Assembly (NCBI GenBank): GCA_018609195.1
Contig: JAHCSE010000018.1
Span: 4,750 to 68,749 of the forward strand
Length of the DNA: 64,000 nucleotides
Source: Patescibacteria group bacterium
GTDB taxonomy: Bacteria; Patescibacteriota; Minisyncoccia; Minisyncoccales; RBG-13-36-15
Direction of reading: 5' to 3'
Shown here: piece by piece, positions 5,772 to 56,725 of the stretch
How the letters are laid out: each line of letters begins with the position of its first letter
How positions within the stretch are numbered: position 1 is the stretch's first letter
Notes under the pieces: generated by a model
Database searches by the model: none
Told to the model about the DNA's origin: nothing
The model's input: only the letters and a program-made list of their open reading frames with translations
Program-made: the position numbers and the translations under genes

Positions 5772-5792
5772 ATAAACCAAATCGAAAATCGT

Positions 5793-5935
5793 CTACCCCA
5801 GTACCATTCGGTACGGGGTAGGTATGAACCGGCTGGTTCTGTACCACGACTCCCAGCCACAGCACCATTCGGTGCGTGGCTAGGCACGAACCGTATGGTT
5901 CTGTGCCAGCCCCAGTCACCGAATTAAAACCTTGA
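5793..5935 (+). repeat. about 2.5 tandem copies of a ~56-nt double-hairpin unit (structured RNA candidate)
   Basis: CCCCaGTACCattcGGTACGGGG + GAACCggctGGTTC, then CAGCCACaGCACCattcGGTGCGTGGCT + GCACGAACCgtatGGTTCtGTGC. Stems differ but stay complementary (compensatory changes). Confidence 0.6.
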
Positions 5936-5965
5936 GCGCGGTTCGAGAGACCGAGCAAGTAAAAG

Positions 5966-18453: not shown

Positions 18454-18888
18454 ATGGCAAAATCAAATCACAATGCCAAGGGATGGCCTCGAGATAGCTA
18501 CACCGGCCCCGGCGGCGGACTATATACCGACCCAGGGGGAGGGCTTTATACCGGTCCTGGCGGCGGAGCGTATACTGGACCCGGCGGCGGTCTTTACACA
18601 GGGCCTGGAGGAGGTTTGTACACTGGGCCAGGTGGCGGATTATATACCGGACCGGGTGGTGGCCTCTACACTGGCCCCGGTGGTGGATTATCTACGGGTC
18701 CGGGAGGAAGTCTTTATACAGGCCCAGGTGGAGGGCTGTACACTGGACCCGGTGGGGGTCTTTATACTGGACCATGCGAAGAACCTTACTATAGCAATTG
18801 GCCGCCTAGGGAAGTTTTTCTCAAACACTTAAAGGAGCTTGGTATGGATGATATATACCAGCTTCTCAAAGATAGTTGGGGTTTATAA
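18454..18888 (+). CDS. Gly/Tyr-rich octapeptide-repeat protein with small alpha-helical C-terminal domain
   Basis: 15-aa head, 11.5 x (Y-T-G-P-G-G-G-L), 37-aa tail CEEPYYSNWPPREVFLKHLKELGMDDIYQLLKDSWGL. The repeat peptide is conserved only in this frame. Confidence 0.6.
   Translation: MAKSNHNAKGWPRDSYTGPGGGLYTDPGGGLYTGPGGGAYTGPGGGLYTGPGGGLYTGPGGGLYTGPGGGLYTGPGGGLSTGPGGSLYTGPGGGLYTGPGGGLYTGPCEEPYYSNWPPREVFLKHLKELGMDDIYQLLKDSWGL
18499..18774 (+). repeat. 11.5 tandem 24-nt repeats (coding)
   Basis: Units differ mostly at third codon positions (e.g. ggc/ggt/gga/ggg, ctt/ttg/tta/ctc/ctg). Confidence 0.9.
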
Positions 18889-19168
18889 AAAATACTTAAT
18901 TTACTATGGCAAGAAAACGAAAAGCAGACCTGGAAAAAATTGGAAGTTGAATCTGTGGAAGTTTGACTCCCACAGACTCTTCTAATTATTTGAATCAGTT
19001 TTAAATCAATCAATGACAGGCAAGTTGATTAAATGAGTATATACAAGCAAAAACCCCACACTACAGCAAAGCTGAGTACGGGGCAGGCTTTTAGAACACC
19101 CTGAAGTATGCCTCGCGGAGTTTACCCCGTATCAAATTTATTCTGATGCGGGGCTCGGCAACTACAGG

Positions 19169-19251: not shown

Positions 19252-19884
19252 ATGTTAGTTTTTATTGACGAGTCTGGAGATCCAGGATTAAAAATAGAAA
19301 AAGGATCTAGTCGATATTTCACGGTATCGTTGGTTATATTTGAGGAGAGAGATGAGGCCTTGGCTTGCGATCAGAGAATCAATCTTTTGAGAAAAGAATT
19401 AGGCTGGGAGCCAAATAGCGAATTCCATTTTAAAAGAAACTCCGATAAGGTAAGGCGGGCTTTTTTACAGGCGGTGGCTCCATATAATTTTTTCTATTAT
19501 GGAATTGTTATTAATAAAGACCCCAAAAAGCTTTGGGGTGAGGGTTTTAGAGATAAAAAATCTTTTTATAAATATACTTGTGGTTTAGTATTTGAAAATG
19601 CAAAAGAGAAGTTAGAAAGCGCAATCATCATAATTGATAAAAGCGGAAATTTAGATTTTAGAAGACAGTTGGCAAAATATTTACGAAAGAGAATGAATGA
19701 AAGAGATAAGAAATTAATTAGAAAAGTAAAAATGCAACGATCGAGTGGGAATAATTTATTGCAGTTAGCGGATTATGTTGCGGGTGTGATAAATAGATCT
19801 ATCCAAAAAGGGAAGAAATATGCAGAGGAATACAGAAAAATCATAGCGCATAGAGAAATTTATGTTCAAATTTGGCCAAAATAA
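19252..19884 (+). CDS. DUF3800 domain protein
   Basis: MLVFIDESGDPG N-terminus and C-terminal LLQLADYVAG, typical of DUF3800. Confidence 0.8.
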   Translation: MLVFIDESGDPGLKIEKGSSRYFTVSLVIFEERDEALACDQRINLLRKELGWEPNSEFHFKRNSDKVRRAFLQAVAPYNFFYYGIVINKDPKKLWGEGFRDKKSFYKYTCGLVFENAKEKLESAIIIIDKSGNLDFRRQLAKYLRKRMNERDKKLIRKVKMQRSSGNNLLQLADYVAGVINRSIQKGKKYAEEYRKIIAHREIYVQIWPK

Positions 19885-20042
19885 GAACCTTGCCTTCGGC
19901 AGAACCTTGATTCCTTTGGAATTAAGAACCTCACCTTCGATGAGAACCTTGTTTTCTTGTTTCACTCGAAAATAAAACTTCCGAGCCTATCCCTTTCGGG
20001 AACGCGGCGATAAACGCCACAGTTCAGCTCGGAAGCAATTCC
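19885..20042 (-). ncRNA. candidate structured sRNA convergent on DUF3800 (three-way junction + AGGTTCT/hairpin repeats)
   Basis: Minus-strand TTGACA (20078-20073), 18 nt, TAATAT (20054-20049). Then CUUCCGAGC..GCUCGGAAG closes two hairpins (GUGGCG/CGCCGC, UCCC-GAAA-GGGA) followed by UUUUAUUUU. After that come 4 x AGGUUCU separated by small hairpins. Confidence 0.4.
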
Positions 20043-24373: not shown

Positions 24374-25771
24374 ATGGCAAGAAGAGTCTCAAAAAGGAAA
24401 AAAGGATTAAAGAAAAGAAAAAAGATTAAAAAAATCCGAAAATCTCAGGTTCAAGAGAAAGTTTTTGATTTTCAACCAAGGAAAATCAAAATGAAGGTAG
24501 TTGGCATTGGTGGAGGAGGAAGTTCAATTGTTTCAGGAATTGCTCCTAAATTAAAGAAAATAAAATTTGTGGTAGCCAATACCGACCTACAAGCTTTAAA
24601 GAAATCAGCGAAAGGGGTTACAAAATTTCATTTTGGTAAAGATTTTACTCGAGGACTGGGAACGGGAATGAATCCTGAGTTAGCTGAGAGAGCTGCTCTG
24701 GCAGAAATAGAAAAAATTAAAAAAATTTTTCGGGGTCAAGATCTCTCGATTTTAATTTCTTGTCTGGGAGGAGGAACAGGATCAGGAGCTACCCCTATCT
24801 TTGGTCAAGCAGCTAAAGATTTAAAAAATTATACATTAGGTATTTTTACTTTGCCTTTTTTGTTTGAAGGGGAAAAAAGGTTAGCAATAGCATTAAATGC
24901 CCTGGAAAAAATAAGGCCAAATTTAAATTCAATTGTTATTGTTCCCAATGAAAGAGTTTTCCAGTTAATTTCTCAAAAAACGCCAATTAAAGAGGCTTTC
25001 TCTGCTATTAATAAGATTTTAGCTGAAAACTTGGAGGGATTGATTGAAATGTTATATTTAGCAGGTTTAATTAATATTGATTTTGCTGATGTAAAAACTA
25101 TTCTCTCTGGGAAAGGAAGGCTTTCTTATTTACATACAGTTTTGATTCAAGGGGGAAATAAGGTTGAAGAAGAAGCTAAGAAAATCTTGGAAAATCCATT
25201 TTATGAATATACAATGGAAGGGGCAGACAGAATCTTATTTAATATTTCAGGTGGGAAAGATTTGAAAATTACAGAAGTTGAAAAAATTAGTAAACGCATC
25301 GCAGATTCCAATAAAAAAGCAAAAATTATTTTTGGAATATCGGAGAATGAAAAATACAAAAATAAAATAAAAATTACGCTGCTGGCCGTAGGCTGTAGAG
25401 AAAAACCAAAAATTTCTACTCCAGCCAAGAAAAAGATTTCTAAAATTAAAAAAATCACTAAAATTACTCGCCTCGCTCTCGCCTCGCCTCGGCGGAGCGG
25501 GTCGGAGGCGAAGCGGGCTCGCCTCGCTGAAGCTACGGCGAAGCGGGCCAAAAAGTCTAAAAAAAACAAAAAGAAAGAGATTAAATCAGAAGAGTCTAGT
25601 ACTAGTAAAAATCTAGTCTTTTCTCCAGAAATTAAAGAGGAGAAAACGGAGATGAAAACGAGGAGAAATGCTCTGGAACTAAAACAAGAAGCAGAGCAGG
25701 CTGAAAAAGAACACCTATCCAGAGAGGCTGCGTGGGATATTCCTGCTTTTTTAAGAAGGAGAAAAAAATAA
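24374..25771 (+). CDS. ftsZ: cell division GTPase FtsZ with basic N-extension and long C-terminal linker
   Basis: GIGGGGSSIV, GGGTGSGATPI (tubulin signature), and C-terminal DIPAFLRRRK peptide. Confidence 0.85.
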   Translation: MARRVSKRKKGLKKRKKIKKIRKSQVQEKVFDFQPRKIKMKVVGIGGGGSSIVSGIAPKLKKIKFVVANTDLQALKKSAKGVTKFHFGKDFTRGLGTGMNPELAERAALAEIEKIKKIFRGQDLSILISCLGGGTGSGATPIFGQAAKDLKNYTLGIFTLPFLFEGEKRLAIALNALEKIRPNLNSIVIVPNERVFQLISQKTPIKEAFSAINKILAENLEGLIEMLYLAGLINIDFADVKTILSGKGRLSYLHTVLIQGGNKVEEEAKKILENPFYEYTMEGADRILFNISGGKDLKITEVEKISKRIADSNKKAKIIFGISENEKYKNKIKITLLAVGCREKPKISTPAKKKISKIKKITKITRLALASPRRSGSEAKRARLAEATAKRAKKSKKNKKKEIKSEESSTSKNLVFSPEIKEEKTEMKTRRNALELKQEAEQAEKEHLSREAAWDIPAFLRRRKK

Positions 25772-27632: not shown

Positions 27633-28946
27633 TTGCAATCTAAAATCGAAAATCTAAAAGCAAGAGAGATTCTTGATTCAAGGGGAGAGCCCACCGTAGA
27701 AGTACAATTAATCACTAATGTTGGTGATTTTTTTTCTTCGGTTCCGTCAGGATCCTCAAAAGGAAAATATGAGGCAGTAGAGATAAGAGATGGCGGAAAG
27801 AGGTATCACGGGAGGGGAGTAGGGAAGGCTGTACGGAATGTTAATGAAATAATATTCCCGCAACTCAAGGGAAAAGATGTTAGAGATCAGAAAACGATTG
27901 ATGAGATTTTAATTCAACTAGATGGAACAAAAAATAAATCAAAATTAGGGGCTAATGCCATTTTACCCGTAAGTATAGCAACCTGCCGAGCTGGAGCTGC
28001 GGCAGAAAATTTACCTCTTTATAAGTACATTCAAAAGATTTTTCAACCAAGATACCCGCCAAAGGCAAGGCTCGCCAGGGGCGGCAAGATACAAGCTACC
28101 CCGAAAGAGAGCAAGCATCCTACGGGGCAAGCACGCTACAAACTCCCTATCCCTTGCTTTAATATCATCAATGGGGGAGTACACGCTGGTAATGAATTGG
28201 CACTTCAAGAGTTTATGATTGTTCCTCAATTTAAATCAATTAAAAAGTCTCTTCAGGCAGCTTCAGAAATTTATCATACTCTTAAGAAAATCTTAATAAA
28301 ACATTTTGGGAGGAAATCTGTGAATGTTGGGGATGAAGGAGGTTTCGCCCCGCCCCTGTCTTACACGAAAGAGGCTCTCAGCTTACTAATGGCAGCGATT
28401 AAAGAAGCAGGCTACAACCAAAAAGTACAAGTTGGTTTAGACGTAGCTGGTTCCCAAATTTTTGAAAAGGGAGTCTATAAGTTAGATAAAACAATTTTTA
28501 TCAGAGCGGGTTTAATAATCTTTTATCAAGACCTTATTAAAAAATATCCGATTGTTTTTATTGAAGATCCCTTTTTTGAAGAAGATTGGGTGGGATTTCA
28601 AGAGATTACTCAAAAGTTAGGCAAGAAAATAACTATTTTTGGTGATGATTTATTAGCTACAAATACGGAAAGGATAAAAACGGCTCAAAATAAGAAAGCT
28701 TGCAACGGTTTGATTTTAAAACCAAATCAGATTGGCACAGTGACGGAAACCATAGAAGCTGCAAAACTATCCAGATCTTTTGGTTGGAAGATAATGGTCT
28801 CGCATCGCTCAGGAGAAACGAGGGACGATTTTATTGCAGATTTAGCAGTAGGAATTTCAGCTGACTTTATTAAAGCCGGAGCCCCAGCCAGAGGGGAAAG
28901 ATTAGCAAAGTATAATAGGCTAGTAAGAATTGAGGAGGAATTATGA
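27633..28946 (+). CDS. eno: enolase (with ~30-aa GC-rich insertion)
   Basis: AREILDSRGEPTVEV, NIINGGVHAGN, SHRSGETRD. TTG start. Confidence 0.9.
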   Translation: MQSKIENLKAREILDSRGEPTVEVQLITNVGDFFSSVPSGSSKGKYEAVEIRDGGKRYHGRGVGKAVRNVNEIIFPQLKGKDVRDQKTIDEILIQLDGTKNKSKLGANAILPVSIATCRAGAAAENLPLYKYIQKIFQPRYPPKARLARGGKIQATPKESKHPTGQARYKLPIPCFNIINGGVHAGNELALQEFMIVPQFKSIKKSLQAASEIYHTLKKILIKHFGRKSVNVGDEGGFAPPLSYTKEALSLLMAAIKEAGYNQKVQVGLDVAGSQIFEKGVYKLDKTIFIRAGLIIFYQDLIKKYPIVFIEDPFFEEDWVGFQEITQKLGKKITIFGDDLLATNTERIKTAQNKKACNGLILKPNQIGTVTETIEAAKLSRSFGWKIMVSHRSGETRDDFIADLAVGISADFIKAGAPARGERLAKYNRLVRIEEEL

Positions 28947-30193
28947 AAATTCTTTTTATTGTCATTGATGGCCTGGGTGATCGGCCAATTTCTGAATTAG
29001 GGGAAAAAACTCCGCTGGAGGCCGCTAAAACTCCAAATTTAGATCGGTTGGCTAAAAATGGAATTTGTGGGCAGATTTCACCTTTTCAATTTCCCTGGCA
29101 GAAATATCCAGTATCAGACACTGCCCATTTAGCTCTATTTGGCTATAACCCAAAAATTCATTATTTAGGCCGAGGACCCTATGAAGCAGCTGGAATTGGA
29201 ATGGAATTAAAGAAAGGAGACGTGATATTAAGAGTAAATTTTGGCACAGTAAACAGGAAGCTTAAGGTAATTGACAGGAGGGCAGGAAGAATAGAAAAGA
29301 CCGAACTTTTCGTAAAAGCTTTAAATGGAATCAAGATTGAAGGAGTTACATTTTTGGTAAAAAAATCTTTTGGCCACCGAGCAGTACTAATCTTGAGAGG
29401 GAAAAATCTATCAGAGAAAATAACCGATTGTGATCCAAAAAAAACAGGGAAGATTATGAAAAAGGCAGTTCCTTCAACAAGCGCGAAGGGAAAGGAGTTA
29501 AGTAAAGCTAAATTTACTGCGGACATTTTGAATAGATTTTTAGAAAAGGCGCATTTTATTTTAAAAAATCACCCTCTGAATAAAAAAAGAATCAAAGAAA
29601 AGAAATTACCCGCAAATTATTTCTTAGTAAGAGGAGCAGGAAAGTTTAAAAAGACAACCAGTTTTTATCAAAAATATAAATTAAACGCTTGTTGTATTGT
29701 AGGAGGAGCCTTATACAAGGGGATAGGAAAGATTTTGGGAATGAAATTGATAAAAGTCAAAGGAGCTACCGGTTTTCCCACTACGAATTTGAAAGGAAAA
29801 TTCCAGGCAGCAAAAAAAGCTTTAAAAAAACCTGCCCCGTACCGAAACGCAGTTTCTGGTGCGGGGTACGATTTTGTTTTTCTTCATATTAAGGCTGCAG
29901 ATACCTTGGGAGAAGATGGAAATTTTCAAGGAAAAAAAGAATTTATTGAAAAAATTGATAAGAATTTAAAAATTTTAATGGATCTAAAGAATGTTTTAAT
30001 TGTAATAACTGGCGATCATTCCACTTGTTCCAAACTCAAAAGCCATTGTTCGGAGCCAGTGCCAATTTTAATATATGGGAATAGGAAAGATAAAGTTCGA
30101 GAATTTGGAGAAAGAGCTTGTAAAAAGGGGAAATTAGGGACGATTGAGGGATTAAATGTAATGCCAAAAATTTTAGCTCTGATGAAATCATAG
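28943..30193 (+). CDS. apgM: 2,3-bisphosphoglycerate-independent phosphoglycerate mutase, archaeal type
   Basis: MKILFIVIDGLGDRP, YDFVFLHIKAAD and ITGDHST motifs of ApgM. Confidence 0.85.
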   Translation: MKILFIVIDGLGDRPISELGEKTPLEAAKTPNLDRLAKNGICGQISPFQFPWQKYPVSDTAHLALFGYNPKIHYLGRGPYEAAGIGMELKKGDVILRVNFGTVNRKLKVIDRRAGRIEKTELFVKALNGIKIEGVTFLVKKSFGHRAVLILRGKNLSEKITDCDPKKTGKIMKKAVPSTSAKGKELSKAKFTADILNRFLEKAHFILKNHPLNKKRIKEKKLPANYFLVRGAGKFKKTTSFYQKYKLNACCIVGGALYKGIGKILGMKLIKVKGATGFPTTNLKGKFQAAKKALKKPAPYRNAVSGAGYDFVFLHIKAADTLGEDGNFQGKKEFIEKIDKNLKILMDLKNVLIVITGDHSTCSKLKSHCSEPVPILIYGNRKDKVREFGERACKKGKLGTIEGLNVMPKILALMKS

Positions 30194-30560: not shown

Positions 30561-30593
30561 ATGATAAAAGTCGCAATCAATGGTTTTGGCCGT
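30561..30593 (+). pseudogene. orphan N-terminal fragment of a second gap allele (MIKVAINGFGR)
   Basis: atgataaaagtcgcaatcaatggttttggccgt parallels the real start atgccaagaattgcaataaatggatttggtagg (30650). It runs into a GC-rich hairpin and stops. Confidence 0.55.
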
Positions 30594-30649
30594 ACCCCAC
30601 ACCAGAACAGAGTTCGGTACGGGGCAAGTTGGCCGCCCGGTAATAAATT

Positions 30650-31669
30650 ATGCCAAGAATTGCAATAAATGGATTTGGTAGGATTGGGAGACCCACTTTC
30701 AAGAAAATTTTAAAAGACCATTCCGATTTGGAAGTGGTAGCGATTAATGATTTGACAGATACGAAAACCTTGGCTCATCTGTTAAGATATGATTCTGTTT
30801 ATGGAATCTATAATAAACAAGTAAAATCTTCTGAAGATTCCCTTTTAATCGATGGAAAGCGCGATGGAAAAAAAGTTAAGGTTTTAGCTGAGACAGATCC
30901 CGCAAAACTCCCTTGGAAAAATCTGGGAATAGATCTTGTTTTGGAATGCACTGGCAGGTTCACTGAAATTGAGGGAGCAAAAAAGCATTTGGCAGCAGGA
31001 GCTAAAAAAGTGATAATCTCTGCCCCCTGTAAAAGCCCAGGGGTGAAAACTTTTGTTTTGGGAGTAAATGAAGAAATGTATGATCCGAAAGCAGATAATG
31101 TAATTTCAATGGCTTCTTGTACTACCAATTGTTTCGCTAACGTAGTTAAAGTTTTAAATGACAATTTCAAGATAATTCGGGGTTTTATGACCACTGTCCA
31201 TAGTTATACCAATGATCAAAGAGTTCTGGATTTACCCCATAGGGATTTGCGAAGAGCAAGGGCAGCAGCCTTAAATATTATTCCAACTACCACAGGGGCA
31301 GCAAAAGCCATTGGTAGGATTATTCCTGAATTAGAAGGGAAATTAAATGGTATTGCCTTTCGAGTTCCCACTCCCACAGTATCAATTTTAGATTTAATTT
31401 GTGAAGTTGAAAAGAAAACAACTACTGAGGAAGTAAATTATATTTTTAAAAAGGCTTCTGAAAAAAAAGAACTACAGGGAATTTTAGGAATAGAGGACAC
31501 TCCCTTAGTTTCTTCTGATTATATTGGCAATTCTTTCTCTGCAATTGTTGATAGCCCTTTGACTATGGTCAAAGACAATTTGGTCAAAGTTGTCGCCTGG
31601 TACGATAACGAATGGGCATACGCTTGTCGTCTTGCTGAGTTCGCAGAATTTGTTGGAAAGAAACTTTAA
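30650..31669 (+). CDS. gap: type I glyceraldehyde-3-phosphate dehydrogenase
   Basis: INGFGRIGR, SCTTNC and WYDNEW motifs. Confidence 0.9.
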   Translation: MPRIAINGFGRIGRPTFKKILKDHSDLEVVAINDLTDTKTLAHLLRYDSVYGIYNKQVKSSEDSLLIDGKRDGKKVKVLAETDPAKLPWKNLGIDLVLECTGRFTEIEGAKKHLAAGAKKVIISAPCKSPGVKTFVLGVNEEMYDPKADNVISMASCTTNCFANVVKVLNDNFKIIRGFMTTVHSYTNDQRVLDLPHRDLRRARAAALNIIPTTTGAAKAIGRIIPELEGKLNGIAFRVPTPTVSILDLICEVEKKTTTEEVNYIFKKASEKKELQGILGIEDTPLVSSDYIGNSFSAIVDSPLTMVKDNLVKVVAWYDNEWAYACRLAEFAEFVGKKL

Positions 31670-31866
31670 TTTTTGATTAACTAAATAAATAAAGTTAGCG
31701 TATGCCCATTCGCACAGGAGGGGTCGGGAGGATTGGGTATCCTCCCGTGGTGGAAAAATAGGAGGTTGCCGAAGGCAACCGACGTAAGAAACCGAAGGTG
31801 TCTTAGGAGCGGAGCGAAGCGAACCCGAAGGGCGAGCGCCTGAACAAAGTGAAGGAAGAGCGGAGC

Positions 31867-31929
31867 GACGAATGGGCTTACGCCTGCCGTCTAGCTGAAT
31901 TTGCAGAATATGTTGGAAAAAAGCTATAA
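31867..31929 (+). pseudogene. orphan C-terminal fragment of a second gap allele (DEWAYACRLAEFAEYVGKKL*)
   Basis: 20 codons + stop parallel the real C-terminus NEWAYACRLAEFAEFVGKKL* (31607-31669), with mostly synonymous differences. Confidence 0.6.
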
Positions 31930-31953
31930 TCTTGAAAGTTAATGGCGTAATTA

Positions 31954-32657: not shown

Positions 32658-34625
32658 TTGCAATATATGATCAAAAAAGGTAATTTGTATTTTCCAACGA
32701 AAGAATTCAAAAAAAGGGCTTTGATAAAAAGTGCGGCAATCTATAAGACAGCCGCTAAAAATCCAATTAAATTTTGGGAGAAGTTAGCCAAAGAGCTTTT
32801 ATGGCAAAAGAAATGGAAAAAAGTATTTTCCCACCGACCACCCTATTTTAAATGGTTTGTCGGAGGAAAATTAAACATTACCGAGAATTGTCTGGAGAGA
32901 AATCTTGAAAAAAGGAAAAACAAAGTAGCTTTCATTTGGGAACCAGAACCAATAGCCGCTCCAAATGGGCGAGCCTCGCCCAGTAAAACTGGGCGGGAAG
33001 AAAGAGAAAGGTATTTCACATATTATGATTTGTATAGAGAAGTTAATAAATTAGCCAATGCTCTTAAAAAATTAGGGGTGAAAAAAGGAGATCGAGTAGG
33101 AATTTATTTGCCAATGATTCCTGAAGCAATAATTTCAATGTTGGCCTGTGCCAGAATAGGAGCTATTCATACTGTCGTTTTTTCTGCCTTCTCCCCACAA
33201 GCGCTACGGATAAGGCTTCAAGATACTACAGCCAAAATTTTAATCACGGCTGATGGTTACTATCGAAAAGGTAAAATTATTAATTTAAAACAAAATGCAG
33301 ATAAAGGGGTAAAAAGCACTAAAGTGAAGAAGGTAATTGTGGTAAAGCGAGCGAAAAACGAAATTCCCTGGCAAAGAAAACGAGATCTCTGGTGGTCAGA
33401 TTTAATTAAAAATGAAAAAGAATTCTGCAAACCTGCAGCAATGGATAGTGAAGATACTTTATTTATTCTCTACACGTCGGGAAGCACCGGGAAACCAAAA
33501 GGAATAGTTCACACCACAGGTGGCTATATGGTACAAGCCAATTTCACCGGCAAATGGATTTTTGATTTAAAAGAAGATGATATTTTCTGGTCTATGGCAG
33601 ATGTAGGTTGGATTACCGGGCATACGTACAGTTGTTACGGGCCATTACTGACAGGCACCACCTTTTTAATTTTTGAAGGGGCACCAGATTGGCCGACTCC
33701 TGACAGGTGGTGTAAAATCATTGAGAAATATGGAGTCACTACTTTTTATACAGCTCCCACTGCCATTCGGATGTTTGAAAAATACGGGATAAAACTTCTC
33801 AAAAGATATACATTTAATACTTTACAAATTTTAGGCTCAGTAGGAGAACCAATCGATACAGCAGCCTGGCAATGGTATTTTAAAGAAGTTGGGAGAGAAA
33901 AATGCCCAATTGTTGATACTTGGTGGCAAACAGAAACAGGTGGAATTTTAATAACTTCTCTTCCTGGAATCGGGCCCTTTAAACCAGCTTTCACTGGTTT
34001 GCCCTTCCCTGGATTACGAGTTAATATTTTAGACGAAAAGGGGAAATCTCTTCCAGTTCACAAAGAGGGGAACTTGGTGATTTTACCTCCTTTTGCTCCT
34101 GGATTATTAAGAGGAGTGTATAAAAATCCAAAAAAATATTTAGAAACCTATTGGAGTCAATACGGGAAGAGAATCTATTTTACCTCAGATACAGCATACC
34201 GCGATAAAAATGGTCTCATCAGAATTGTGGGAAGAGTAGATGATGTAATTAAAGTAGCTGGTCATAGATTAACTACCGGAGAGCTGGAAAGTGCAATTGC
34301 GAAACATCCAGATATTACTGAATCAGCCGTGGTTGGCATTCCTGATGAGATTAAGGGAGAGGTACCGGTAGCTTTTGTGGTCTCTCATAAAAAAAGGAAA
34401 GCTGAAACAATAGCAAAAGAGGTGAGAGAACAAGTGAGAAAAGAAATTGGCCCCATTGCCCTGCCAAAAAAAGTTTATTTAGTAGAAGATATTCCAAAAA
34501 CTCGCTCAGGAAAAATTATGAGGAGAATTTTAAAGAGATTATTTACTAAAGAAAAGTTAGGAGACCTTTCTACCTTGGCCAACCCAGAAAGCGTCAAAAA
34601 AATTAAAGAAGTAATTGTTAAATGA
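32658..34625 (+). CDS. acs: acetyl-CoA synthetase (AMP-forming)
   Basis: YTSGSTGKPKG, WWQTETGG and the C-terminal PKTRSGKIMRR motif. Confidence 0.9.
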   Translation: MQYMIKKGNLYFPTKEFKKRALIKSAAIYKTAAKNPIKFWEKLAKELLWQKKWKKVFSHRPPYFKWFVGGKLNITENCLERNLEKRKNKVAFIWEPEPIAAPNGRASPSKTGREERERYFTYYDLYREVNKLANALKKLGVKKGDRVGIYLPMIPEAIISMLACARIGAIHTVVFSAFSPQALRIRLQDTTAKILITADGYYRKGKIINLKQNADKGVKSTKVKKVIVVKRAKNEIPWQRKRDLWWSDLIKNEKEFCKPAAMDSEDTLFILYTSGSTGKPKGIVHTTGGYMVQANFTGKWIFDLKEDDIFWSMADVGWITGHTYSCYGPLLTGTTFLIFEGAPDWPTPDRWCKIIEKYGVTTFYTAPTAIRMFEKYGIKLLKRYTFNTLQILGSVGEPIDTAAWQWYFKEVGREKCPIVDTWWQTETGGILITSLPGIGPFKPAFTGLPFPGLRVNILDEKGKSLPVHKEGNLVILPPFAPGLLRGVYKNPKKYLETYWSQYGKRIYFTSDTAYRDKNGLIRIVGRVDDVIKVAGHRLTTGELESAIAKHPDITESAVVGIPDEIKGEVPVAFVVSHKKRKAETIAKEVREQVRKEIGPIALPKKVYLVEDIPKTRSGKIMRRILKRLFTKEKLGDLSTLANPESVKKIKEVIVK

Positions 34626-38264: not shown

Positions 38265-38717
38265 ATGAATAAGTTATTAATTTTGATTGTTGCAATAATC
38301 TTACTGGTTATTTTACTGTTTTCTTTTTTAGCCTGGAAGGGTTATCAAATATCAAAAGAGCGGGCACTTTCTGTTTCCACTGACCAAAAAGAATATCAAG
38401 TAGAAGAAAATCCAAAAGTAAAAATTAAGAACAATTCAAAAGAAACTGTTTGTTTTTCCTCTTGTTATCCTTATTATTTGGAGAGAAATAATGGCTCTCT
38501 CAAATCCTATAGTTATGGCAGCTGCCCCGATCCTGATGTGGCTGAAACCTGCATTGATCCCAGAGAGCTTAAAACCTTTGAAATTTTATTAGTAGATAGA
38601 ATGAAATTAGAGAAAGGTATCCACCGAATAGCTATTCCTGCTTGTATTGGCTGCACCTTGCAGGAAAATTTCAGAAAGGATAAGTTCTTTTACTCCAACG
38701 AATTCCTTATTAAATAG
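38265..38717 (+). CDS. hypothetical membrane-anchored Cys-containing protein
   Basis: MNKLLILIVAIILLVILLF signal anchor and 6 Cys in the ectodomain. The ORF-track start at 38232 is less likely. Confidence 0.45.
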   Translation: MNKLLILIVAIILLVILLFSFLAWKGYQISKERALSVSTDQKEYQVEENPKVKIKNNSKETVCFSSCYPYYLERNNGSLKSYSYGSCPDPDVAETCIDPRELKTFEILLVDRMKLEKGIHRIAIPACIGCTLQENFRKDKFFYSNEFLIK

Positions 38718-38721
38718 AGAT

Positions 38722-39441
38722 ATGCTGACCTTACCTGTTAAAATTCGCCAAACTTTTGGAAAGGAAACAAAAACCCTTAGAAATAAGGGTCTTTTACCTG
38801 CTATAGTTTATGGCCCAAAAATAAAATCTCTGCCCTTAGAATTGGATTACAAAATCTTTGAAAAAGTTTACAAAGAAGCTGGAGAAAGCTCTCTCATCTC
38901 TCTTGAGATTGAAAATCAAGGAGAAAAGCCTTCAGTTTTAATTCACGAAATTCAAAAAGATCCTCTATCTGATAAAATAATCCATGTTGATTTTTACCAG
39001 GTTCCTGTAGATAAAGAGGTGGAAGCAAAAGTTTCTTTAATTTTTGAAGGAGAGACAAAAGCAATTAAAGAATTAGGAGGAACCTTAATTAAAAATATTT
39101 CTGAATTGGAAGTTAAAGCCCTTCCTCAAAATTTGCCAAAAGAAATTAAAGTGGGAATTTCACAGCTGAAAACTTTTGAGGATAATATTTTAATTAAAGA
39201 TCTGAAGATACCTAAAGGGGTGAAAATTTTACGAGACCCAGAAGAAATCGTAGCGAATGTCGTTCCCCCTGAAAAAGTTGAAGAGGAATTAGAAAAACCA
39301 ATTACTGAGGCAGTGGAAGAAGTAGAAAAGGTAGCCGCCAAAGGCGAGCCTCGCCAAGAGCGGGAAGAAAAGAAAGAAGAGGAAGAGGTGAAAGAAGAAA
39401 AAGAGGGAAAGAAAGAAGAAGAAAGTGCTAAAGAGAAATAG
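38722..39441 (+). CDS. rplY: ribosomal protein L25/Ctc with K/E-rich tail
   Basis: MLTLPVKIRQTFGKETKTLRNKGLLPAIVYG. The ORF-track N-extension (38647) overlaps the previous gene and is rejected. Confidence 0.85.
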   Translation: MLTLPVKIRQTFGKETKTLRNKGLLPAIVYGPKIKSLPLELDYKIFEKVYKEAGESSLISLEIENQGEKPSVLIHEIQKDPLSDKIIHVDFYQVPVDKEVEAKVSLIFEGETKAIKELGGTLIKNISELEVKALPQNLPKEIKVGISQLKTFEDNILIKDLKIPKGVKILRDPEEIVANVVPPEKVEEELEKPITEAVEEVEKVAAKGEPRQEREEKKEEEEVKEEKEGKKEEESAKEK

Positions 39442-46725: not shown

Positions 46726-46937
46726 AAGATTGTGAATTTGATTTGTTATGTTAATAACAAAGATTCGACCTTTTTGAACACCTTTCTATAATGGCTAATT
46801 TCGTTATTTGAGGTGCTCCTATTTTATCAATTCTAGCAAAAAACTTCTCCTTTGTCGATTGTTATCTAAAAAAAAGACCCCCAGGCATTGCATTGATGCT
46901 TTGCCTGAGGGCTCAGAAAGGGGGGAAATCGGCTGGG

Positions 46938-47162
46938 TTAGTCGTGGTCTGCGATCCATCTTTGAAGCTGGGCGATCCGTTCTAGGACCTGGACGTGACA
47001 GGTCCCGATTGCCTTGATTTCTCCGAACTCCTGCGGGGACATCCCGAGCCCAAGGGCCTCCTTTTCGAGGAACCAGAGTTCCTCTTCTGGAGTACGCTGC
47101 GTCTCAGCCGGTACCTCCCGAACCGGTGCTTTCCTAACCGGTGCCTCCACAGTCAATACCAT
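46938..47162 (-). CDS. 74-aa protein in GC-rich mini-island
   Basis: AAGGAGGT RBS 7 nt upstream of ATG. Own TTGACA-17-TAGAGT promoter (about 47196-47224). Long terminator hairpin at 46868-46915. Confidence 0.5.
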   Translation of the reverse strand: MVLTVEAPVRKAPVREVPAETQRTPEEELWFLEKEALGLGMSPQEFGEIKAIGTCHVQVLERIAQLQRWIADHD

Positions 47163-47238
47163 CTCGACACCTCCTTTCTTTTGAACTAATGCTACTCTAT
47201 CAAATTATCAACAAAATGTCAATTTAAATATTGTGTGC

Positions 47239-52605: not shown

Positions 52606-52732
52606 ATTGCAATTCTACCAAAAAACATACCCCATATAAAGCCCCGAACCAGAAACTTCGTTTCAGTTCGGGACTAGTCCAGCACCGTGCTCTGCTCTGG
52701 TGCTGGGCTTAGTTTTTGTGCGGGGTCGCCAC

Positions 52733-52963
52733 AAAAAAAAGAGCCCCCAAGCATTACATCAATGCTTTGCCTGGGGGCTTGGTGGTGGCCCTGAAGGGGC
52801 CTTGGCAAAAAGGGCTAATGGGGGAGAGGGAAAGCGATCCCGGGGTGAGACACCCCGCCGAGGTCATAAAGGAAGGTTACCGGTTTGGCGCATCGCCATG
52901 GAGCCAACTTCCATCCTTCCCGCTTCGAGACCTCTGGTTGAAGAGAACCACCTTCCCTCTCCC
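52733..52963 (-). ncRNA. GC-rich structured RNA, paralog A (unknown class)
   Basis: TTGACT (52997-52992), 16 nt, TATAAT (52975-52970). Transcript starts GGGAGAGGGAAGG and pairs with UUCCCUCUCCC (52821-52833). There are several internal hairpins. It ends in a 17-bp hairpin + U8 (52733-52780). Confidence 0.5.
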
Positions 52964-53021
52964 AAATTAATTATAATTTTTTCAGAACTTGAGTCAAGAG
53001 GAAGGCTAAATAAAAACTCTC

Positions 53022-54972: not shown

Positions 54973-54976
54973 TAAA

Positions 54977-55171
54977 CAAAAAAGCCCAGAGGGGGCCTTT
55001 TGGCGAAAAGAGCTGGAAAGAGCTGAAGGGAGAGGGGAGGCGATTCTGTCTGAGGTGAGCCTCCCGTATCTGACCACGATGAGGTAGAGAGGTACCGTTC
55101 TGCATCGCGCCACGTCTGAGTCCCCAAGGAGGGGAACGTTTGAGGGTCCGGAGAACCACCTGCCCTCTCCC
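54977..55171 (-). ncRNA. GC-rich structured RNA, paralog B (unknown class)
   Basis: TTGAAT (55205-55200) + TATAAT promoter, nearly identical to paralog A. The 5' end GGGAGAGGGCAGGUGGUUCUC pairs with CCUCCCCUCUCCC (55028-55040). The interior has diverged but keeps hairpins. Confidence 0.5.
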
Positions 55172-55286
55172 AAGTTAATTATAGTTTTTCCAGAACTTGA
55201 TTCAACCCCCACACCTATTTTTAGGTAGTGGCGGGCTTGCCATTCCATAGCTTTAGCGAAGGATGGGCTAAAAGTTGGCTGACTTT

Positions 55287-55918: not shown

Positions 55919-56638
55919 CTAAAATTTGGCTGCTTGGTCAAACCACTTGCCAAATTGGCAGTCTTGACGGTGGGCAGGCGGTGTATTTTTTCTCAAAACA
56001 GCCACTGCTTCTTCAAAAAGTCCCTGGACATACGCAGGGTCTGTCTCTATCTCATGAAGTTCTTTTCGAAAAGGTAATCTATCACCAAAACCGTTTTCCT
56101 TATCAACGATATAAAAAGCTAGATAACCCTTTCTTGGGGTTAAAAATCCATTTTTTTCCAACAAGTAAGTATAAACATCCATTTGCAGCTGAAAACGATC
56201 ATATACAGTAGGCACCTTGCTACCAGTAGATTTATAATCAAGAGGAGATAATTTGCCATCTGGAAATTCTAAAATATCATCAACCGCTCCAAAAATAGTT
56301 GCTTTAAGCTCTGAATCATAATAACGTATCCCTGCAAAATTACTGCGCCATTGATTTAACTTATCTTGATTAGGAAAGAGTTTTGCCTTGATATTATTCT
56401 CCAAAAGCAAAGGATGAGGTTCTCCTTTCGCCCGATAATCATCAAACTCCTTTTTTAAAAGAGTATCTACAGCCATGTTTAAAGCATAGGGATAGGGCGG
56501 TGGCCTTTTAATTCCTTTACGCTTTCCCAGCCAAAAACAAAGTTGACACTCTAAGAATAAATTTAGGCTCGTCGGCGAAAGTTTAACCTGCCCCGTAGGG
56601 AACTTGTTCTCCTTCGGGGTTTGATTATTATTGCTCAT
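55919..56638 (-). CDS. PD-(D/E)XK nuclease family protein (Cas4/RecB-like)
   Basis: N-terminal SLNLFLECQLCFW; GAVDDILEF..LSPLDYKSTG (D..DxK). Confidence 0.6.
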   Translation of the reverse strand: MSNNNQTPKENKFPTGQVKLSPTSLNLFLECQLCFWLGKRKGIKRPPPYPYALNMAVDTLLKKEFDDYRAKGEPHPLLLENNIKAKLFPNQDKLNQWRSNFAGIRYYDSELKATIFGAVDDILEFPDGKLSPLDYKSTGSKVPTVYDRFQLQMDVYTYLLEKNGFLTPRKGYLAFYIVDKENGFGDRLPFRKELHEIETDPAYVQGLFEEAVAVLRKNTPPAHRQDCQFGKWFDQAAKF

Positions 56639-56725
56639 TTTTTATTTCAGCTTCGGCTTTGTCATCCATAGCTTTAGCGAAGGATGGGCTAAATTTTGGT
56701 TTTTTTAGGATTTTTGTAAGGATAA

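Follow-up and report, generated by a model that had tools for sequence, protein, structure and literature searches.

How does a core glycolytic enzyme come to carry a sharply GC-rich, palindromic segment in the middle of an AT-rich gene? The question is raised by the enolase gene of a Patescibacteria group bacterium (GenBank assembly GCA_018609195.1, contig JAHCSE010000018.1), analysed here within a stretch of 64,000 nucleotides that we refer to as the window. Our analysis indicates that the segment very probably represents two adjacent, independent in-frame insertions of short, non-autonomous palindromic repeats that resemble repetitive extragenic palindromic (REP) elements and come from two related, dispersed families.

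Two insertions in the enolase linker

The host protein has the hallmarks of a genuine enolase: Pfam assigns aa 5-133 of the open reading frame (ORF) to Enolase_N and aa 169-437 to Enolase_C, enolases of the PDB match it at E about 1e-127 in two blocks that skip aa 137-164, and all invariant and catalytic columns are kept in a comparison with 69 homologues. Between the N-terminal domain and the barrel lies the GC-rich stretch (28053-28140), with a GC content of 60.2% versus 37.6% in the remaining gene and 37.0% in the window; its 90-nt GC peak of 0.61 exceeds the window mean by about 3 standard deviations. Two inverted repeats are present in it, CCGCC..GGCGG at 28056-28084 and CCCCG..CGGGG at 28099-28127. 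Four further assemblies from four samples (two Logan/SRA runs and two metagenomes of the Joint Genome Institute (JGI), one of the four being the 750,154-bp JGI contig Ga0326312_1000001) are identical over 7-21 kb, with a single mismatch in one of them, by which an assembly artefact could be ruled out.

The composition and the inverted repeats had already been picked out in a sequence-only reading of this DNA, which postulated about 30 extra residues introduced by one palindromic insertion. The span from LPLY to NIINGG indeed comprises 56 residues here, compared with a range of 28-58 and mostly 28-35 in 120 homologues, all of them from the Candidate Phyla Radiation (CPR) or Parcubacteria-like. 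The excess is real and smaller than postulated: in the closest homologue (P0002/L001, 71% identity) this part is shorter by 21 residues, and in most of the 120 by about 21-28. Insertion in frame was likewise borne out, as two events and not one: the codon alignment with the closest homologue opens two clean in-frame gaps, one of 30 nt at 28056-28085 and one of 33 nt at 28101-28133 (which is equivalent to 28099-28131), between which 15 nt of host linker were kept (KIQAT versus KIQNT). Where the homologue reads QSQY-KIQNT-KYKIP, the host enolase reads QPRY[PPKARLARGG]KIQAT[PKESKHPTGQA]RYKLP. The closest homologue and 118 others lack the segment, and in this CPR set we encountered no case of unrelated enolases sharing it, the finding that the sequence-only reading had named as speaking against an insertion.

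Both elements are imperfect GC-stem hairpins, element 1 being built from an outer CCGCC/GGCGG and an inner GGC/GCC stem, and the inserted blocks are neither copies nor reverse complements of the flanking enolase sequence. Element 2 encodes (T)PKESKHPTGQ(A), aa about 157-167. As each insertion has a length divisible by three and is free of stop codons, both would simply be translated, the 30 + 33 nt contributing 21 residues to a disordered surface loop of an enzyme that is otherwise intact; YPPKARLARGGK and HPTGQAR would be peptides of this loop. Mapping on a structure, as had been proposed, is in line with this: an AlphaFold2 model based on a 70-sequence alignment (mean predicted local distance difference test score, pLDDT, 89.6) places residues 141-165 at values <50 in a coil between helix 129-137 and strand 173-180, so that the insert, situated where the two domains join, is predicted to be a disordered loop on the surface, and the enolase is probably active with its insertions.

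The linker itself deserves attention. The (Y/F)K-IQN-(Y/F)K-(I/M)P form is also present in several other lineages, and in the closest homologue the linker is a heptanucleotide repeat, (AAATACA)x5. The linker retained between the two elements is what remains of an (AARATAC)n heptamer-like linker. Heptamer-repeat remnants, CAAGATAC and AAGCTAC, flank the elements in the host enolase, the 8-nt CAAGATAC forming a direct repeat on either side of element 1 within the heptamer-repeat linker.

Table 1. Positions of the enolase gene, of its two elements and their relatives in the window, and of further palindromes; entries beginning with L refer to loci of related genomes, R1 is the covariance model of family 2.
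Feature	Position	Strand	Basis
Enolase, host gene, 437 aa, TTG start	27633..28946	+	Pfam Enolase_N + Enolase_C, PDB matches
Element 1 (family 1, copy 1a), 30 nt, CCGCCAAAGGCAAGGCTCGCCAGGGGCGGC, encodes PPKARLARGG (aa 142-151)	28056..28085	+	gap versus L001, paralogue
Retained host linker, AAGATACAAGCTA.., K I Q A T, homologous to KIQNT	28086..28098	+	codon alignment with L001
Element 2 (family 2, copy A), 33 nt, CCCCGAAAGAGAGCAAGCATCCTACGGGG + tail CAAG	28099..28131	+	gap versus L001, R1 40.1 bits
Family 1 copy 1b, GCCGCCAAAGGCGAGCCTCGCCAAGAGCGG, C-terminal tail of ribosomal protein bL25/Ctc (38647-39441)	39334..39363	+	Pfam Ribosomal_L25p
Family 1 copy 1c, 42 nt, core GGGCGAGCCTCGCCC, acetyl-CoA synthetase	32955..32996	+	Pfam ACAS_N/AMP-binding, alignment with 1a, 1b
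Family 2 copy B, 33 nt, TPKENKFPTGQ, N-terminus of PD-(D/E)XK nuclease (55919-56638, -)	56587..56619	-	R1 49.4 bits, Pfam PDDEXK_1
Family 2 copy C, 36 nt, antisense in cofactor-independent phosphoglycerate mutase (apgM, next gene), encodes PAPYRNAVSGAG	29831..29866	-	R1 44.8 bits
Family 2 copy D, 34 nt (not divisible by 3), upstream of gap in decayed GAPDH 5' end	30595..30628	+	R1 47.1 bits
Family 2 tail-to-tail intergenic pair, H 19054-19087 (+) and F 19121-19153 (-)	19054..19153		R1 45.6, 42.3 bits
Second tail-to-tail family 2 pair, about 52642-52676 (+) and 52674-52710 (-)	52642..52710		R1 36.1, 29.5 bits
Weaker family 2-like copy, CCCCAGTACCATTCGGTACGGGG-TAGG, non-coding region	5794..5826	+	R1 22.5 bits, E = 0.003, outside training set
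Linker palindromes in enolases of relatives	L007:2163-2197, L023:10402-10436, L236:1847-1881, L237:3408-3442, L238:3411-3445; also L033, L040, L051, L200, L004		
GAGAAC-N-GTTCTC sites in relatives	L026:8580; L037:10898, 10923; L047:4465, 4488; L059 (3 sites); L064:4357		
Terminator-like hairpins	5960, 9113, 43108, 45624, 48884, 50757, 53021, 54043, 54946		

Two dispersed families of short hairpins

A repeat search, also suggested by the sequence-only reading, revealed paralogues of both halves of the segment in other genes of the window, where they are clean insertions relative to orthologues (the orthologue alignments drew on 80 related genome loci). The core of element 1 differs from 39335-39363 in the bL25 gene at 4 of 29 positions, and 28049-28089 is 83% identical to 39328-39368 over 41 nt, flanks included; the core of element 2 differs from 56591-56619(-) in the nuclease gene at 5/29 positions and shows 84% identity with 56589-56620. 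In 300 shuffles that preserved local composition, the best chance match to either 29-nt core had at least 8 mismatches, and none of them (0/300) equalled the paralogues. Pure-GC hairpins with 5-bp stems are generally in excess in the window (29 versus 5-9 in shuffles). Neither ARAGORN, which found no tRNA on the GC islands or hairpins, nor Rfam 15, in which no family matched the window hairpins or the 14 metagenome loci compared, be it at the gathering thresholds or with E relaxed to 0.1-1, assigned them to a known RNA.

Family 1 is defined by outer CCGCC/GGCGG and inner GCGAG/CTCGC stems and by an unpaired SAAG end. Its bL25 copy adds 9 aa opposite a gap in one relative (homologue L063) and is translated as AAKGEPRQER in a frame that differs from the enolase copy (PPKARLARGG), while the copy in acetyl-CoA synthetase, also in frame, encodes AAPNGRASPSKTGR, the 14-aa insertion being missing from 16/16 homologues at up to 75% identity. 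As the copies are read in different frames, the conserved unit is the DNA and not a peptide motif, and a motif at the peptide level was ruled out. A further in-frame GC island (25466-25560, up to 71% GC) is found in the lysine-rich C-terminal linker of FtsZ, where it encodes ..RLALASPRRSGSEAKRARLAEATAKRA..; it is rich in CTCGCC/GGCGAG words resembling family 1 and probably represents one or more additional repeat insertions.

Family 2 is the larger of the two. Nine aligned copies yield the consensus A followed by CCCC(G/A)-hairpin-TACGGGG-CARG with a length of 33-36 nt, the unpaired end being CARG (CAAG/CAGG) and conforming to YARG in 8/9 copies. The hairpin comprises 11 pairs with 91.9% of cells paired, four pairs changed on both sides and 13 compensatory cells; none of 500 shuffles paired as well, and slid controls reached at most 52%. 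A covariance model (R1) detected 9 copies in the window, two of which had not been in the training set, and only 3-4 in 1.14 Mb of DNA from related Parcubacteria, located in two Nealsonbacteria genomes; one of the latter lies in frame in a 542-aa ORF and specifies the peptide PQKENLRFPTGQA in the enolase frame. Among the window copies, the apgM element is 87% identical to 52642-52672 and 86% to 30591-30630. It constitutes a clean in-frame addition of 12 aa that is missing from 16/16 relatives and has no target duplication, and the nuclease copy, in the same reading frame as in enolase, adds 10 aa opposite a gap in one relative (homologue L022). The intergenic H/F pair has a REPIN- or BIME-like arrangement (REP doublet forming hairpin; bacterial interspersed mosaic element), and the second pair lies in a GC-rich non-coding region, its 29.5-bit member being outside the training set. 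Sense copies of family 2 share a common frame in 3/3 cases. Across both families, in which the cores measure 29-32 nt, six of the 12 window copies are in-frame gene copies, and wherever an alignment was obtained the copies are insertions absent from relatives (two genes with 16/16 relatives, two with a single relative). The comparisons demonstrate that the elements have inserted and dispersed, that their hairpins are constrained and that permissive sites tolerate them.

The distribution of family 2 beyond this organism is consistent with this picture. A pattern scan of JGI metagenomes returned at least 120 loci, with at least 93 copies in contigs of ≤50% GC; the counts given here and below hold among the matches listed. 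Nearly all of the 93 low-GC copies are well-formed hairpins whose inner stems vary in a compensating manner (e.g. CCCCGAAGGAAAGCCTTCGGCTTCCTACGGGGCAAG), with a modal length of 36 nt. Forty-six of the 93 reside in ORFs of at least 100 aa, 36 of these in sense orientation, and the peptides TPKESLRLPTGQA and NPEGKPSASYGAG recur. Where at least 50 ORF codons are present on each side, 13/17 copies measure 36 or 39 nt, the other four being 34-41 nt long and antisense, whereas copies outside ORFs take any length of 34-41 nt. This length pattern is as expected from translation combined with selection on the reading frame. In a scan of viral contigs, matches were confined to GC-rich contigs (47-68% GC) and mostly lacked a clean hairpin, and we regard them as the chance background of the pattern.

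Proposed mobilisation, competing explanations and the linker of related enolases

The mobile unit would be a GC-rich imperfect hairpin of 29-32 nt followed by a conserved unpaired 3' tetranucleotide, CARG or SAAG, which in enolase would have landed directly after TA(C) in the linker that joins the N-terminal domain and the TIM barrel. The left flank ends in TA or TAC at 6/6 coding or near-coding copies of the window, and most metagenome copies have an A directly 5' of CCCCG. The elements may have spread by transposition in trans, likeliest via an HUH/Y1 enzyme that recognises single-stranded hairpins, similar to REP-associated tyrosine transposases (RAYT) or to those of IS200/IS605. Mobilisation as a single strand is favoured by the build of tag plus hairpin, the inverted dimers and the TA/TAC left flanks, and by the lack of terminal inverted repeats of the type found in MITEs (miniature transposable elements with inverted repeats) and of a target duplication at the cleanest site, apgM. 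Copies within genes would persist because selection keeps just those that are in frame in permissive loops and tails.

Several points weigh against such insertions or their proposed route. Pfam revealed no transposase, Y1_Tnp/RAYT included, in the window ORFs scanned (110 aa or longer), and its annotation of ~20 kb beyond the window ends contains none either. Clustering of 860 ORFs near the metagenome copies disclosed no recurrent neighbour gene; apart from housekeeping genes it brought up just a small GIY-YIG protein, present in 3 loci and in none of them adjoining a copy. No empty-site polymorphism was seen, the five assemblies of the organism being identical and the cluster partner of the enolase being the same protein. 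Strand signals are in conflict, as CTTCGG loops point to sense RNA and G-T pairs (26 antisense versus 12 sense) together with C-GAA-G loops to an antisense single strand. Family 1 has just three copies in the window, and both enolase copies are degenerate hairpins, the most degenerate of their families; the whole 111-nt stretch folds no better than shuffles (z = -0.52), a value that is uninformative and means that structure alone is not significant. The direct repeat CAAGATAC could be a target duplication, indicating DDE/MITE-type transposition, or could equally be part of the ancestral heptamer array. Finally, the linker is hypervariable in relatives, and the nucleotide boundaries depend on one homologue of 71% identity.

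In Parcubacteria generally, the enolase linker is hypervariable and prone to palindromes. In many lineages, enolases of this group have a position-conserved in-frame palindrome at this site, AAATTTAC-[variable stem]-loop-[stem]-GTAAATTT, translated as ..IYRG(R/Q)(A/T)SVN.. and sometimes tandemly duplicated (Table 1). Very long perfect linker palindromes occur as well, with a 22-bp stem in L047 and a folding energy of -57 kcal/mol in L064. In other relatives the linker consists of heptanucleotide tandem repeats, (AAATACA)x5 in L001, (AATCAGG)x5 in L013 and (AATACSM)x7 in L024, a unit that is not a multiple of three and hence odd within an essential gene. The enolase P0009 (L239:3001-4338, 63% identical) has a 27-residue linker insertion starting from the same site after TAC, with a CCCCG..CGGGGCAAG-type element and a related tagged hairpin, CCCCGCCCTAAAGGGACGGGG..CTTCGGGGCAAG, which suggests recurrent insertion at one site. 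Moreover, in 1.2 Mb of sequence the 13-nt palindrome GAGAAC-N-GTTCTC was encountered 10 times, in five different genomes, versus about 0.07 expected, five times within enolase genes and once 70 nt upstream of an enolase start; it may be either a shared element or an operator-like site.

Could the hairpins be kept adaptively in cis, by pausing the ribosome between the enolase domains or by stabilising or processing an eno-apgM-grx-gap mRNA? Such a role might be read from the many Parcubacteria enolases with a palindrome at exactly this site, since in an alignment of ten such linkers (A3) 83.8% of cells are paired and 8 of 13 pairs have changed on both sides, a test that is biased because the sequences had been chosen as palindromes. 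Three family 2 copies plus element 1 are moreover crowded inside 2.6 kb of a glycolytic gene cluster, 36/46 ORF-embedded metagenome copies are sense, CTTCGG loops are common, and REPs are known to act as RNA elements (PMC3733652). Yet the same families turn up at sites that have nothing in common with this one, such as the tails and N-termini of proteins, a pseudogene remnant and pairs between genes. Most relatives, the closest included, have no linker hairpin, the enolase copies are the most degenerate hairpins of their families, and G-T pairs favour the antisense strand. We consider this explanation unlikely. Clearly less probable still is a local origin with no mobile element, in which slippage in the heptamer linker and/or fold-back template switching created palindromes de novo. 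The heptanucleotide arrays of three relatives and the CAAGATAC words on either side of element 1 are compatible with it, and the perfect palindromes of other relatives take in the host flank AAATTTAC..GTAAATTT, just as fold-back copying predicts; it cannot, however, account for copies of both elements that lie 11-28 kb off in unrelated genes with 83-87% identity, nor for about 90 family members in other metagenomes, and the inserted blocks are not copied from the enolase flanks in either orientation. For the enolase locus, the paralogous copies largely refute it.

That the segment is not translated at all, being removed from the mRNA or bypassed by the ribosome, is in our view the least probable of these possibilities and scarcely to be expected. 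The GC-rich 'byp' elements of Magnusiomyces mitochondria and T4 gene 60 are cases of ribosome bypass with matched sites. GC-rich hairpins within an AT-rich gene and the CAAGATAC words around element 1, which resemble matched take-off and landing sites, are reminiscent of such systems. Against this stand the open frame of both inserts, each divisible by three, and the length of 36 or 39 nt in 13/17 copies with at least 50 ORF codons on each side, whereas copies outside ORFs take any length of 34-41 nt; copy D, at 34 nt out of frame, is located in the remnant of a dead gene and not in a functional one. An intein- or intron-like element was rejected on the overall evidence. The interpretation as two insertions of dispersed, translated palindromic repeats remains the one that we prefer.

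Neighbouring features and comparison with known repeats

Copy D draws attention to the gap locus, where an intact gene (30650-31669) is bracketed by decayed GAPDH ends at 30561-30649 and 31868-31930. Translation of the 5' remnant gives MIKVAINGFGR, followed by element D and then by IGRPVINYAKN, the 3' remnant ends with ..DEWAYACRLAEFAEYVGKKL*, and a 220-nt GC-rich non-coding block (31691-31913) lies between gap and its 3' remnant. With the stubs of another allele on its flanks, the arrangement looks like a gene replacement. Comparable non-coding blocks of 200-330 nt and 60-67% GC with no Rfam match are located at 5777-5963, 46875-47186, 52638-52969 and 54975-55191; two of them end in a 55-nt repeat (52943-52997 = 55151-55205, 91% identical), GAGAACCACCT.CCCTCTCCCAA.TTAATTATA. 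These blocks are candidates for structured RNAs or for clusters of repeats. Two perfect direct copies of a 29-nt sequence, TCCATAGCTTTAGCGAAGGATGGGCTAAA, at 55244-55272 and 56665-56693 enclose about 1.4 kb with a translin-like gene and the PD-(D/E)XK nuclease gene. Distinct from the GC-stem families is a set of terminator-like intergenic hairpins, (CATCCTA)CCAAAAAATCGCC-loop-GGCGATTTTTT (Table 1). A small ORF (18454-18888) with about 12 tandem GPGGGLYT repeats and a 71% GC peak adjoins a restriction/helicase-like gene. Two family 2 hairpins lie just upstream of a DUF3800 gene (19252-19884), and a DUF3800-IX RNA motif (Rfam RF02968, 58 bits) just downstream of it, at 19973-20036 (-).

Among described systems, the elements come closest to REPs. 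Di Nocera et al. (2013, PMC3733652) report intragenic REPs read in frame from Proteobacteria, Opitutus and Rickettsia, which frequently come as pairs and supply 20-30 residues of a loop or linker. Shared features are the 20-40 nt GC-rich imperfect palindrome with an unpaired conserved end tetranucleotide, dispersed copies in several families per genome, inverted dimers, compensatory stem changes and, in some cases, in-frame copies within a loop, linker or terminus of a housekeeping protein; the copy number, with nine family 2 copies in 64 kb and two tail-to-tail pairs among them, is also REP-like. The GTAG/CGTC tag of REPs is absent here, the tag being CARG/SAAG (CYTG on the other strand), and GTAG/GTAC words are confined to the stem on the opposite strand in some copies. 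About half of the copies lie in ORFs, whereas classical REPs are predominantly extragenic with a small coding minority; further differences are the CPR/Parcubacteria host, the REP-bearing phyla listed to date excluding CPR, and the RAYT gene, none being seen in the window ORFs scanned (110 aa or longer) or in ~20 kb of annotated flank.

The sequence-only reading had likened the segment to Rickettsia palindromic elements (RPEs). According to the summary of Ogata et al. 2000 given in PMC10969869, RPEs are about 100-150 bp long and specify a family-specific conserved peptide. The comparison is apt for behaviour, as both are in-frame palindromic repeats in unrelated conserved genes, at surface positions and absent from orthologues. 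It does not extend to an RPE-sized element, and membership in an RPE family is not supported: on the dimensions given in that summary, the elements described here (30-42 nt, two of them in enolase) are three to four times smaller, and those of family 1 are read in varying frames. They also lack sequence similarity to RPEs and come from another phylum.

Fungal mitochondria likewise harbour short GC-rich hairpins in compact AT-rich genomes, namely mobile GC clusters, double-hairpin elements and 'byp' elements. They are at times situated in coding sequence; being organellar, and in some cases bypassed rather than translated, they offer an analogy only. The GC clusters of yeast have been reviewed (PMC8811140). 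MITEs, which can create in-frame fusions (PMC10969869), are also small, non-autonomous and dispersed, yet the present elements are far shorter, their ends are the two arms of one hairpin instead of transposase-binding terminal inverted repeats, and the apgM site has no target duplication. The coding palindromes of Nematomorpha mitochondria (PMC6649704) are in-frame inverted repeats in conserved protein genes as well; with up to 284 bp, perfect and local, they are a closer match to the perfect linker palindromes of other Parcubacteria enolases.

Our literature searches yielded no description of palindromic or REP elements specific to CPR. A 2026 survey reported the highest densities of perfect inverted repeats of all phyla in two CPR phyla and did not describe coding insertions (PMC13155455). 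Tentatively, and with a probability that we put somewhat below even, the observations on the window and on related enolases can be read jointly: CPR/Parcubacteria may host a previously undescribed super-family of hairpin repeats that routinely enters coding sequence, with the enolase linker as a recurrent landing pad. Its members would have the form A followed by CC(C/G)C(G/C)..stem-loop..(C/G)G(C/G)GG-SARG, 30-41 nt in length, with a tag unlike that of the GTAG/CGTC REPs. Different hairpins would have entered at the same site after TAC in many lineages, and some may have been co-opted as conserved intragenic structure.

The two repeat insertions offer an origin, open to checking, for the odd extra segment of a central enzyme of glycolysis. 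A new REP-like family would be defined, with its own tag, a new host lineage and an uncommon preference for coding sequence, and selfish palindromic DNA in coding genes, best known from Rickettsia, would also operate, at about 10-14 codons per element, in the ultra-small, gene-dense bacteria of the CPR. For annotators and structure predictors this would carry the warning that such GC-rich islands are repeat insertions and not functional motifs. The elements might contribute to the inverted-repeat densities reported for CPR phyla (PMC13155455). If general, the phenomenon would help toward explaining the unexplained short insertions that are frequent in CPR proteins, and the super-family, if true, would systematically give rise to lineage-specific insertions in the loops and tails of these proteins.

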